Assembly (NCBI GenBank): GCA_020137815.1 | Contig: CM035353.1 | Location: 2,790,001-2,854,000, forward strand | Origin: Hormiphora californensis | Taxonomy: Eukaryota; Animalia; Ctenophora | Reading direction: 5' to 3' | DNA length: 64,000 bases | Shown here: piece after piece, positions 3,236-44,213 of the stretch | Layout: every line of letters starts with the position of its first letter | Numbering within the stretch: position 1 is the first letter of the stretch | Notes under the pieces: model-generated | Told to the model about the DNA's origin: nothing | Seen by the model: the letters and a program-made list of their open reading frames with translations, nothing else | The model's database searches: none | Position numbers and translations under genes: made by a program

Positions 3236-6200
3236 TTACGTCTGCTGAGCCCCATCTCCAAAAGTGCCCGGGGGTGGCCGGTAGATGGTTGGAAGCATCT
3301 TACACTGTAGTTTGTTGAAGCAGTATTTGTACATTCCGATATTTTTAAAGGTGTTGTAATACCGCGTTCCGTCCCTGTGGTTAATGGGTGGTTAATGGGT
3401 GTAGGGTGGTTAATATACCTACTGGTTATCTGTCTGAGAATCAAATGGAGTAATTACCTTCGGAACTGTTCTAGAACAGGGTCGATATCGCCTCTCTCAA
3501 AGTTGTGGTTGTTACACAATATATCACAGTACTCGTATGTCAGACTCATGGAGGTTCTGTCCTTACCGCTCTTGCAGGAGGTGAACCTTACGCAGCCAAT
3601 GTCACGGCCAATCTGAAAAGGTTCACGGCCGACTCAACAAGTAATAATAATGGGGGGGATTGGGTATCAATATCATAATGATGAACTTTGCTAGTTGAGT
3701 AACTGAACAAAACTTTGTAGTAAAGTTTCAAGTAAAATATATATCTATCGAATGTTATAGTTCATTTCCCCCGGGAGTCTATCGTGCAAATTGTTTTACC
3801 TGTTCCGCCAAAACGATAAACTCAGGACACTTGTTCCTCTTGGTCACTTTAAACAAGGACTGCAGCTTCTTCATCTTCTCTTCGAGGGCTTCTATACCCT
3901 GGGAAATAATATGAATCCTAAATTCTACCCATCCAACTAACAATACACCAACACAGACTACTGACATGACAACTAAAATTTCAAAGTTTCAATGCCTGTT
4001 TATAGTGCGGTATAGCGGTAAATGTTGCCTCCACCAAAGAACTCGATGCCCTCGATTTCCAACTAGCCCAATATCATGTAATTTGGACAAGAAATGGATT
4101 CGAGTTATGACCAAGACTGTGAAAATTGTGTCCAAATCAAGGCAACATTTACCGCTAATACCGTTTAGTGCCGCCCCGTTTTGATTCTCTAACACAGCTG
4201 AGCACGCTCAGATCGGCGCCTCCATGGCCAGCACACTGGCAACATATACCTGAGGGTTACTGGGGTTGTGTGGCAGATAATACTGGTTGATGTAATCTTG
4301 GAGACTCCCCAGAAATTCCTCACAGATCCTATCTTGAAGGGATGTCTCCATCATTCTGAAACAACAAGGTGTAACGGTGTAATAATAACATCACATTCGC
4401 CAATCTGCAAAACCTAATTAATAAATTAATTGTGCCAGCTCTGTCTGGCACGGCGACCCCGCCATACAGACTTTTGCGTCACTGTGCCGCCATTTCTTCA
4501 CCATTGGTGAATCAAAAATTTGCTATAACTTGAGCTGTAGGGAAAGAGCTCGATGCCCTTTTTCCAATGAGCCCGGATGATGAACCGATTTGGCCAAAAA
4601 ATGGCTGAGTTATTGACAAAAACTTCTAAATTTAGCGTTTAATCTAAAAAGTGTATGACTTTACCGTTAACCTTAGACGGATTTTGGCCCAGATGGGCTT
4701 TAGACGGAGTCAGACGAGCTAGAGAGTAGAGACGGGCTTGAGATGTGCTTGAGATGGAATTTCTATTGGTGACGTTCTGACGTGCTTGAGACGGGTTTGG
4801 TTTCCTTCTGATTTTGTCCAACACCGTCGAAACGGGTAGATCCCGTTTCAGACGGGGGGGGGGGGGGGTCTAAACGTCACGTCTTAATCCCATCAGACTC
4901 AGCTTCGTCTTGACATCGTTGGAATGGTGTCTAGACGACGTCTGCGCTGAATGTGGTAGTAATAAACTCACTCGCTCTCTCTTTGTAACAATCCCCCCAC
5001 TATGCATAGCTATGAAGTCATTAGTACACAAGTTGCTGCCGATTGTTCATGCCCACATTGAAGATACTGCACGTAATACCCCTCCCCCTCATTATGTTAT
5101 TTGTGCAAGTGTCATGGTTGGGGGGGGGGTACTCTGATACACGACAACATTCCATCCAGCGGAACCGTTTACTACAATATTATAATACGAACGGAAAACA
5201 CATTTTTGGAGAAAGAATAAATTTAAAACACATTATTAGTCATTAGCTGATCCGCTGGCAAGAGCTCATCTGATCGTTCCACCCACCGGGCACACCTCCC
5301 TGCGCTCCCTCTTCTATAACAATGAAATCTCCATTGAAGTCATAATGTTTGAAGCACTTCCAATTTCCGCACGCTGCCCAATAAGAGGATACCCGGTCGT
5401 TGAACTCCATCTCCCCGCTAACACCACCTAGCCGAGGGGTGTCCTCGGTCAGGATCCTGAAACCTCCACCGTAGCCGTAGTCCCGGAACAAAACAAGGGT
5501 TTTCAGGGGGCAGTCACAGTGGACAAAAGTCACCAGGAGGGTTGCACAGAGGACAATTAACAGCTTCATATTGAGTAGGTAATGGGTGTTCAGAGTCGGA
5601 TGGTTGGTGTTTATAAAGGAGCAGGAGCTAATGATCTGTACTCATACAAGTTCGAGGCTACCGAGGGTCTCTCCCATTCTATCCTGATTTAATAGACATG
5701 AACCTAGTACCTCTATTCCTTTTATAATCACGTTATTAGTTTAACCTATTTCTATCTATTTTGCGAGATGTTGTACAACATGACATTGTAATTTTGTTCT
5801 ATCTTTTCTTTTCTTTTATGATCTGTGTACCTCACCGAAATGTGTGAACCTATATATCCCCGTCAACCCCCTCGGCCCCTCAACTAATTTATCCCCTGCT
5901 AGCAGCATATTTTGCGGATAGATTGAGCTTTAGCAGCTAATTAGCCTCATTGAATAAATATACTGACCAATCATTTGTCCTGCAAAGCTCGGACAGTAAA
6001 TATTTGTTGAGCATCTTTGAGTACATATTATGTTAACATAATATATACTCAAAGATGCTCAACAAATATTTACTGTCCGAGCTTTGCATGACAAATGATT
6101 AGCCACTATATTTATTCAATGAGGTTTTACAGAGTACCCGGCCGCAATCAAAGAAGGCAGTAAATGGTTGAAAAAATATTAAATAATGACCGATCATTTT

Positions 6201-44213: not shown

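Follow-up and report, generated by a model that had tools for sequence, protein, structure and literature searches.

The question raised by a 64,000-nucleotide (nt) stretch of the genome of the ctenophore Hormiphora californensis (assembly GCA_020137815.1, contig CM035353.1, positions 2,790,001 to 2,854,000; hereafter the window) is whether one gene can carry six others inside its introns and, if so, how its transcript would get past their splice and polyadenylation [poly(A)] signals. The most convincing answer, and a probable one, is that the window holds a single INPP4 gene whose three longest gaps between exons are likely introns, that the six gene-like units within these gaps are likely independent, and that the host likely splices out these guests and reads past their end signals. 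Such an architecture had been proposed in an earlier note made from the sequence alone, and the follow-up described here upholds most of it, alters several labels and brings to light an assembly defect that the note had overlooked.

The host was read on the minus strand, where the three frames yielded short coding blocks that were then aligned to an ortholog. With the exon carrying the motif CKSGKDRT as query, one relative was recovered, a Bolinopsis microptera protein of 829 amino acids (aa) (XP_063688095; hereafter P0003). A tblastn comparison of P0003 with the window gave matches in strict order, with no host exon duplicated or misplaced, and the resulting model comprises 17 clean exons and one degraded exon, with GT-AG borders at 17 of 17 gaps. 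Its first three exons cover the ortholog N-terminus (Table 1), and its last 14 encode 578 stop-free aa with 52% identity to residues 248-829, which bears out the minus-strand placement of INPP4 (44213 to 3236) in the earlier note. The C-terminal 330 residues of P0003 (500-829) match 4,195 proteins; all of the named proteins among the 119 others listed are INPP4A or INPP4B, and among the matches listed these named proteins score E values of about 1e-52. INPP4 proteins are marked by a CX5R catalytic motif and an N-terminal C2 domain. The catalytic-type motif CKSGKDRT fits CX5R, and no Pfam match to a C2 domain was found in P0003, exons 1-3 aligning to its N-terminus only. By homology of the C-terminal phosphatase region, the minus strand from 44213 to 3236 is thus read as one ctenophore INPP4 gene, with predicted 4-phosphatase activity.

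The window gene shares with P0003 and with vertebrate INPP4A and INPP4B both colinearity over nearly the full length and the catalytic-type motif. Splice positions of Bolinopsis INPP4 coincide with its own at every testable place, and isoforms X1 and X2 of P0003 diverge at residue 389, which is an exon boundary in the window gene; residues 145-241 of P0003, in contrast, have their counterpart in error-rich sequence. Two candidate exons (~14620-14555 and 14269-14229) were dropped, as the ortholog aligns without them, and a longer exon starting at 15563 was replaced by 15441-15340 because its extra part is unneeded for the ortholog alignment, the 15563 variant being still a possible form. A 30-bp stretch lying over the INPP4 stop codon (3190-3260, minus strand) occurs again immediately after it.

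The three long gaps stand apart from the 13 short host introns, which measure 82-533 nt and agree with the earlier statement that the others are short. At gaps A and B the flanking exons resume at adjacent ortholog residues, with none missing, none repeated and no stop, which places the guests of these two gaps between consecutive host exons. The host/guest architecture is well supported at the level of DNA and homology. Ordered in-frame exons flank gaps A and B, and all three gaps contain guests. Phase-compatible bracketing exons had been claimed for all three gaps; the claim holds for A (phase 2) and B (phase 0), while the acceptor exon of gap C is error-rich and weakly matched. The guests of gap C sit past exon 3 in clean sequence, and the exon that follows them is only weakly placed. 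On the donor side of this gap, a partial Bolinopsis model (P0005, on a 22.5-kb contig) stops at the same residue; the next exon being off that contig gives a weak hint of a long intron in Bolinopsis too. On its acceptor side, a position at ~29546 was considered, and frameshift-aware alignment favours 30357-30313, weakly. Ortholog residues 218-242 can likewise be weakly placed in the error-rich tract (score 40 vs. 25-31 for shuffled sequence).

Within the gaps lie six gene-like units, three per strand and on the strands claimed previously (three co-oriented with the host, three antisense), whose spans fill 11.9 of the 34.0 kb. No further guest was found: 98 intronic open reading frames (ORFs) of at least 55 aa remained once overlapping and low-complexity ones had been filtered out, and 93 plus 8 other intronic ORFs lacked a match above the Pfam cut-off.

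Table 1. Features of the INPP4 locus, in host order; positions count from the first nucleotide of the window.
Feature	Position	Strand	Evidence and remarks
INPP4 coding exons 1-3	44213-44090, 43993-43860, 43655-43545	-	123 aa, stop-free, 39% identity to P0003 residues 9-144
Gap C, likely intron, 13,056 nt	30489..43544	-	GT-AG, donor phase 0, weak donor; lower boundary uncertain
Secreted Ig/Kazal/VWD-type protein, 3 exons, 683 aa, antisense	39454..41772	+	open spliced frame
GPCR-like (G-protein-coupled receptor-like) multi-pass membrane gene, 3 exons, antisense	37447..38869	+	hydrophobic segments; about three frameshifts near 38547-38670; label unconfirmed
His/Arg-rich repeat array, signal-peptide-like start, same strand	31857..34668	-	74 units, most of them 36 or 39 nt long; frame shifted by 1 nt at two places
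Error-rich tract with INPP4 exons 4-6 (30488-30325, ~28770-28690 weakly placed)	28500..31000	.	identical-neighbour excess 1.5-2.0; weak frameshifted matches
INPP4 exon upstream of gap B	28377..28515	-	44% identity to P0003 residues 242-286
Gap B, likely intron, 11,437 nt	16940..28376	-	GT-AG, phase 0; flanking exons continuous
Error-rich tract, likely unpolished long-read sequence	19500..27200	.	identical-neighbour excess; Kv exon 1 frameshifts
Non-LTR (long terminal repeat) retroelement-like remnant, approximate boundaries	21350..24300	-	RT (reverse transcriptase)-thumb and endonuclease-like motifs in order at 22471, 22210, 21552
Shaker-type Kv channel, 4 exons (~19916-19551, 19346-19122, 19042-18453, 18268-18085), same strand	18085..19916	-	Pfam Ion_trans, E 1e-20
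Nine INPP4 exons, introns 82-533 nt	13891..16939	-	P0003 alignment
Gap A, likely intron, 9,535 nt	4356..13890	-	GT-AG, phase 2; flanking exons continuous; all normal-quality sequence
LDLa-repeat rhodopsin-type GPCR, single coding exon, 1,057 aa, antisense	10140..13313	+	Pfam 7tm_1 and Ldl_recept_a above cut-off
Beta/gamma-crystallin-domain protein, signal-peptide-like start, 108 aa, single exon, same strand	5243..5569	-	Pfam Crystall (PF00030), 28.1 bits, cut-off 25
Last four INPP4 exons, including the CKSGKDRT exon 3612-3458	3236..4355	-	81% and 91% identity to P0003 in the final two

In about 10 kb of the locus (19.5-27.2 and 28.5-31 kb), identical neighbouring bases are in 1.4-2.0-fold excess, compared with 0.8-1.3 in the rest of the sequence. 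Exon 1 of the Kv guest, which lies inside the first tract, shows 7 frameshifts in 123 alignment columns, whereas exons 2-3, outside it, show 0 in 260. Both tracts likely represent an assembly defect, that is, unpolished sequence and not biology, because a conserved gene is unlikely to lose three middle exons while its 17 others are clean. The earlier reading missed these ~10 kb of degraded assembly as well as the frameshifts in two guests. The nesting nonetheless stands, because gap A is free of noisy sequence, Kv exons 2-4 connect cleanly with the host exon at 16939, and normal-quality sequence ties the three guests of gap C to the host exon at 43545; every guest is in this manner linked to some host exon.

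As for the guests themselves, four are solid and two, the GPCR-like and His/Arg genes, probable. The crystallin, LDLa-GPCR and Kv labels given in the earlier note all pass Pfam cut-offs, the LDLa repeats of the receptor preceding its 7tm_1 domain. Gap A further contains an element of 1.25 kb (7065-8314) that has inverted ends of 176 bp, 90% identical, and resembles a non-autonomous DNA transposon. The Kv guest of gap B is, by domain content and orthology, read as a ctenophore Shaker (Kv1-like) channel with a T1 and a six-helix ion transport domain: exons 2-4 share 65-67% identity with ctenophore orthologs, and exon 1 aligns across its frameshifts to the T1 region of orthologs that carry PF02214, although its start codon could not be located in the error-rich exon 1. 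Since most Shaker clades are reported to be older than the main ctenophore split (10.1101/2024.12.09.627618), this guest is probably an old gene and not a fresh retrocopy, and its three introns agree with that. The donor of gap B (28376) and the acceptor of Kv exon 2 (19347) are both in phase 0, such that an erroneous splice between them would fuse INPP4 to Kv in frame; as phase 0 is a common phase, this may be meaningless. A 110-bp element occurs in five copies (1419, 17991, 19423, 27221 and 61350) with 94-99% identity, three of them in gap B, including one in Kv intron 1. The motifs of the neighbouring retroelement, which we take to be RT-thumb and endonuclease patterns of non-LTR elements, are in order. 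The R4 label given to it earlier, which would call for an RT domain followed by a C-terminal restriction-like endonuclease and for placement by RT phylogeny, is not established: no Pfam match was obtained, and the sequence is too degraded for an RT tree.

In gap C, the closest named relative of the Ig/Kazal/VWD-type guest is a protein of Pleurobrachia bachei (87%), a member of the same family as Hormiphora. The protein itself matches Pfam I-set only (E 0.026), and its label draws support from a homolog (P0160) with Ig, Kazal and VWD Pfam domains that aligns to query residues 22-420 at 23% identity (E 1e-21); an atlas search returned no usable match, and a single-sequence fold of the VWD region (pLDDT 35) was too poor for use. 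The GPCR label of its neighbour at 37447-38869 is unconfirmed. Its first 274 codons are open across two GT-AG introns and encode five hydrophobic segments before the first frameshift, with no significant Pfam or PDB match and no fold match at E 0.001 (from a model of pLDDT 45, too poor to be decisive). The His/Arg gene comprises ~73 repeats with runs of basic residues after its signal-peptide-like start; 72 of 74 unit lengths are divisible by three, and the other two, of 38 nt, break the frame. Its product may be a precursor from which peptides are processed, or else a secreted protein that is cationic and binds metal. It gave no usable atlas match and none by title in a literature search; a Lysostaphin_N match was rejected as a repeat artefact, as no stretch passes alone, as were four sub-cut-off Pfam matches on three tandem-repeat ORFs and one more. 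The same 15-bp G-rich minisatellite occurs in the same orientation on both sides of the His/Arg gene (30534-31608 and 35943-36412), as if the gene had inserted into, or moved with, the array. The description of all six guests as intronless or intron-poor applies in full to the crystallin and LDLa-GPCR genes, each with a single coding exon, and not to the Kv gene with three introns or to the GPCR-like and Ig-VWD genes with two each.

How a host transcript could pass such guests depends on the signals that they bring. The co-oriented guests had been credited with their own termination signals, which can be said of two of the three at best: AATAAA comes 77 nt past the stop of the His/Arg gene, with a chance of 0.045, and 231 nt past that of the Kv gene, with a chance of 0.13, and the crystallin gene has no AATAAA downstream, only a variant hexamer. 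The host strand of the three gaps contains 18 AATAAA in total, a density no higher than in the rest of the window, and therefore any intron this long meets the same read-through problem. Splice sites were scored with a crude matrix built from 20 short introns, and the gap C donor proved weak (2.6 bits, 18 of the 20 short-intron donors being higher). Strong acceptors occur 3-8 nt upstream of the ATG in 4 of 8 window genes (34677, 10133, 53539 and 55678; p 4e-4 against a background 95th percentile of 5.3 bits, n=750, for a pattern seen by eye before testing), that of the His/Arg gene lying 8 nt before its ATG (34677). Such acceptors are as expected from spliced-leader addition or from introns in the 5' untranslated region (UTR), and at least 56% of Hormiphora Iso-Seq reads are reported to bear a leader (PMC8527503).

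The earlier note's argument that poly(A) and splice signals inside the introns have to go unheeded by the host is sound, and for poly(A) sites it is already established in Drosophila, where read-through on the same strand was demonstrated in 2013: a host ignores the poly(A) site of its same-strand guest as long as a 5' splice site stands upstream, and removing that splice site brings back its use (PMC3890989). Intron-dependent read-through combined with restricted guest expression is, by analogy with flies, the likely mechanism here as well. Each guest would have its own promoter, and in its transcript the poly(A) site, with no open 5' splice site upstream, would be used; in the host transcript the same sites would follow a host 5' splice site and, as in Drosophila, be silenced, probably through U1. 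Conflicts left over from this arrangement (Kv exons, the His/Arg acceptor, antisense collisions) may be limited by narrow guest expression, and some truncated or chimeric host RNA would be expected where a guest is active. The guests themselves may have arrived through local insertion into repeat-rich introns.

Several other explanations deserve weight against this one. Local misassembly, in which patched gaps joined the wrong pieces, would make the content or span of gaps B and C partly false or some guests foreign, and the degraded ~10 kb, the seven frameshifts in one Kv exon, the scrambled host exons and the minisatellite arrays adjoining the lower tract are all signs of the kind it would leave; it is nevertheless very unlikely, given that gap A is clean, that Kv exons 2-4 and the gap C guests are cleanly tied to host exons, that host exons are neither duplicated nor out of order and that the noisy tracts keep Kv exon 1 and the host exon remnants in the right order. 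A more substantial possibility, still clearly the less probable one, is that fewer than six guests work, the GPCR-like gene and perhaps the His/Arg gene being pseudogenes and four or five units active. The former has its frameshifts within 130 nt where composition is otherwise normal, the latter has two 1-nt shifts in its array, and no relatives were found for either; yet the GPCR-like gene keeps its frame through 274 initial codons and over two introns, nearly all His/Arg units preserve the frame, and indels in G-rich or repetitive sequence are frequent assembly errors. A smaller number of working guests is in any case compatible with the nested-gene explanation.

The remaining alternatives concern transcription. 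Full-length INPP4 might be a minor product, with most transcripts ending at guest signals or with blocks of downstream exons having their own promoters, so that the gaps would be nearly intergenic. The weak gap C donor and the 18 host-strand AATAAA would suit such a view, as would the mouse H13/Mcts2 pair, in which nested transcription triggers intronic polyadenylation of the host (PMC13309782). It has little probability, however: the ortholog is one 829-aa protein with both halves conserved, the AATAAA density is that of the rest of the window, and a splice from the gap C donor to the acceptor of the His/Arg gene would run into a stop three codons on. Most improbable is an operon-like arrangement, in which same-strand guests share the host promoter and spliced-leader trans-splicing cuts them out of the pre-mRNA or intron of INPP4. 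The prevalence of leader-bearing reads in Hormiphora (PMC8527503) and the acceptors just before the ATG, that of the His/Arg gene included, speak for it. An ATG-proximal acceptor is equally compatible with an intron in the 5' UTR or with trans-splicing of a transcript from a guest's own promoter, though, and it is also seen in one antisense guest and in two neighbours that are not nested; the crystallin gene lacks one, the Kv start is unreadable, and a search of the window for leader-like loci gave 0 matches where 0.63 were expected. In nematodes, moreover, an upstream donor favours cis- over trans-splicing. The broader proposal that ctenophore introns act as operons, a guest acceptor such as that of the His/Arg gene competing with the weak splice sites of the host, is equally improbable; if true, one promoter would give full INPP4 or guest mRNA by cell type, which would help to explain the abundance of nested genes in comb jellies.

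The preferred explanation, a host that splices out six nested guests, has a set of observations weighing against it. INPP4 exons 4-6 are scrambled and the acceptor phase of gap C is not readable, its acceptor exon (30488-30325) giving a weak, frameshifted match to ortholog residues 176-191 (score 46, with shuffled maxima of 25-42, n=8). The long-gap acceptors of the host score just 4.4-5.7 bits, are equalled by 54-60 internal AG sites per gap and are beaten by the acceptors of the Kv (6.4-7.1 bits) and His/Arg (8.7) genes. A same-strand guest with three introns, as Kv is, would belong to a class selected against in flies (PMC3814207), and the mechanism as a whole is carried over to ctenophores from flies and mammals. 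Published Hormiphora nesting has Iso-Seq support (PMC8527503), whereas that of INPP4 is read from DNA and homology. Finally, the Bolinopsis Kv and INPP4 accessions (XP_063687408 and XP_063688095) are ~690 apart and give no sign of conserved nesting.

Conservation was followed through these same two genes. The Bolinopsis Kv ortholog and INPP4 have the same longest contig listed, of 17,428,893 nt (about 1/13 by chance), and are thus likely on one chromosome in shared linkage; ctenophore chromosomes are reported to correspond one-to-one without gene order being kept (PMC10232365). A metagenome scan for the ctenophore Kv locus gave 3 loci among 512 candidates, at 28-38% identity and none an ortholog, and for the Ig-VWD gene 10 clusters, out of 34 matches, were inspected without yielding a Bolinopsis accession. 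Upstream of INPP4 on the plus strand lie a small cysteine-rich secreted-type ORF (53546-54172), with no Pfam match, and a single-exon arylsulfatase identified by Pfam (55682-57316). Elsewhere in the window are a 608-bp inverted repeat with 97% identity and a 180-bp spacer (61523-62918), broken reverse-transcriptase-like fragments recognized by eye at 48240-48990 on the minus strand, with no Pfam match, and the end of an ORF at 751-1161 on the plus strand, also without a Pfam match, which could belong to the terminal exon of a gene that runs towards the 3' end of INPP4.

Nesting as such is common in comb jellies, as the earlier note said: for Hormiphora, 1,654 hosts are reported to contain 2,357 nested genes, with 484 doubly nested and many parallel to their host, a level like that of primates and some arthropods (PMC8527503), and a glass sponge study describes ~10% nested exonic bases as normal across phyla (PMC10282587). 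A term search of the Beroe genome paper met no mention of nested genes or introns (PMC11184263), and no description of the INPP4 nested-gene locus was found in the literature searched (INPP4 with ctenophore or nested gene). In mammals the number of guests per host has a 95th percentile of 3-4 and a maximum of 77-186 (PMC11694760). Three simple distributions fitted to the Hormiphora totals predict 0.4, 3.9 or 9.7 hosts with at least six guests. Same-strand guests make up 727 of 1,651 nested genes in Drosophila (PMC3890989), and at fly rates three of six on the host strand has a p of 0.23-0.54. The word extreme, used earlier of the six-guest host, is not supported: fly hosts hold 6, 8 and 23 guests, 0.4-10 such hosts are extrapolated for Hormiphora, and the co-orientation is within chance. 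Six guests in 41 kb belong to the upper tail, dense and with precedent; the number is high, not extreme.

The locus therefore adds another case to the well-known gene nesting of comb jellies and flies. Its interest lies in offering a compact test of how a trans-splicing animal separates host from guest splice and poly(A) signals, with three same-strand guests that differ in build (no intron; an acceptor just before the ATG; three introns). These guests bring acceptors stronger than the host's own, and how the host avoids them is a fair question. Annotators are also warned, since tools that forbid nesting would split INPP4 and degraded tracts make an intact gene look broken. The locus would gain in importance if Kv nesting were conserved across ctenophores or if guests were cut from the host transcript.

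Many guests of fly hosts are tandem paralogs, whereas the six INPP4 guests are unrelated to each other. The Drosophila hosts CG43867, dunce and kirre, with 6, 8 and 23 guests, resemble INPP4 as single hosts with many intronic genes, the short guests of dunce being active chiefly in the salivary gland, but these hosts span 120-394 kb and INPP4 packs its guests into 41 kb (PMC7230524). Nested fly genes are described as having narrow expression that correlates weakly with that of their hosts; 72.5% of those on the same strand have a single exon (PMC3814207), as do 2 of the 3 same-strand INPP4 guests. Other Hormiphora hosts share with INPP4 several guests per host, both strands and repeat-flanked guests, and a published figure shows four genes in one host; the mean is 1.43 guests, against six in INPP4, in which double nesting is absent (PMC8527503). 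Mouse H13/Mcts2 is alike in that nested transcription could shorten host elongation and differs in having a single imprinted guest under DNA methylation control (PMC13309782). A further parallel is offered by the Drosophila pairs xl6-nop5 and ytr-eIF6, in which the host disregards a guest poly(A) site within its intron while the guest makes use of it (PMC3890989). Experiments prove this for the flies, whereas for INPP4 it is inferred, and INPP4 differs from these same-strand pairs in having one same-strand guest with three introns and in belonging to an animal that trans-splices.

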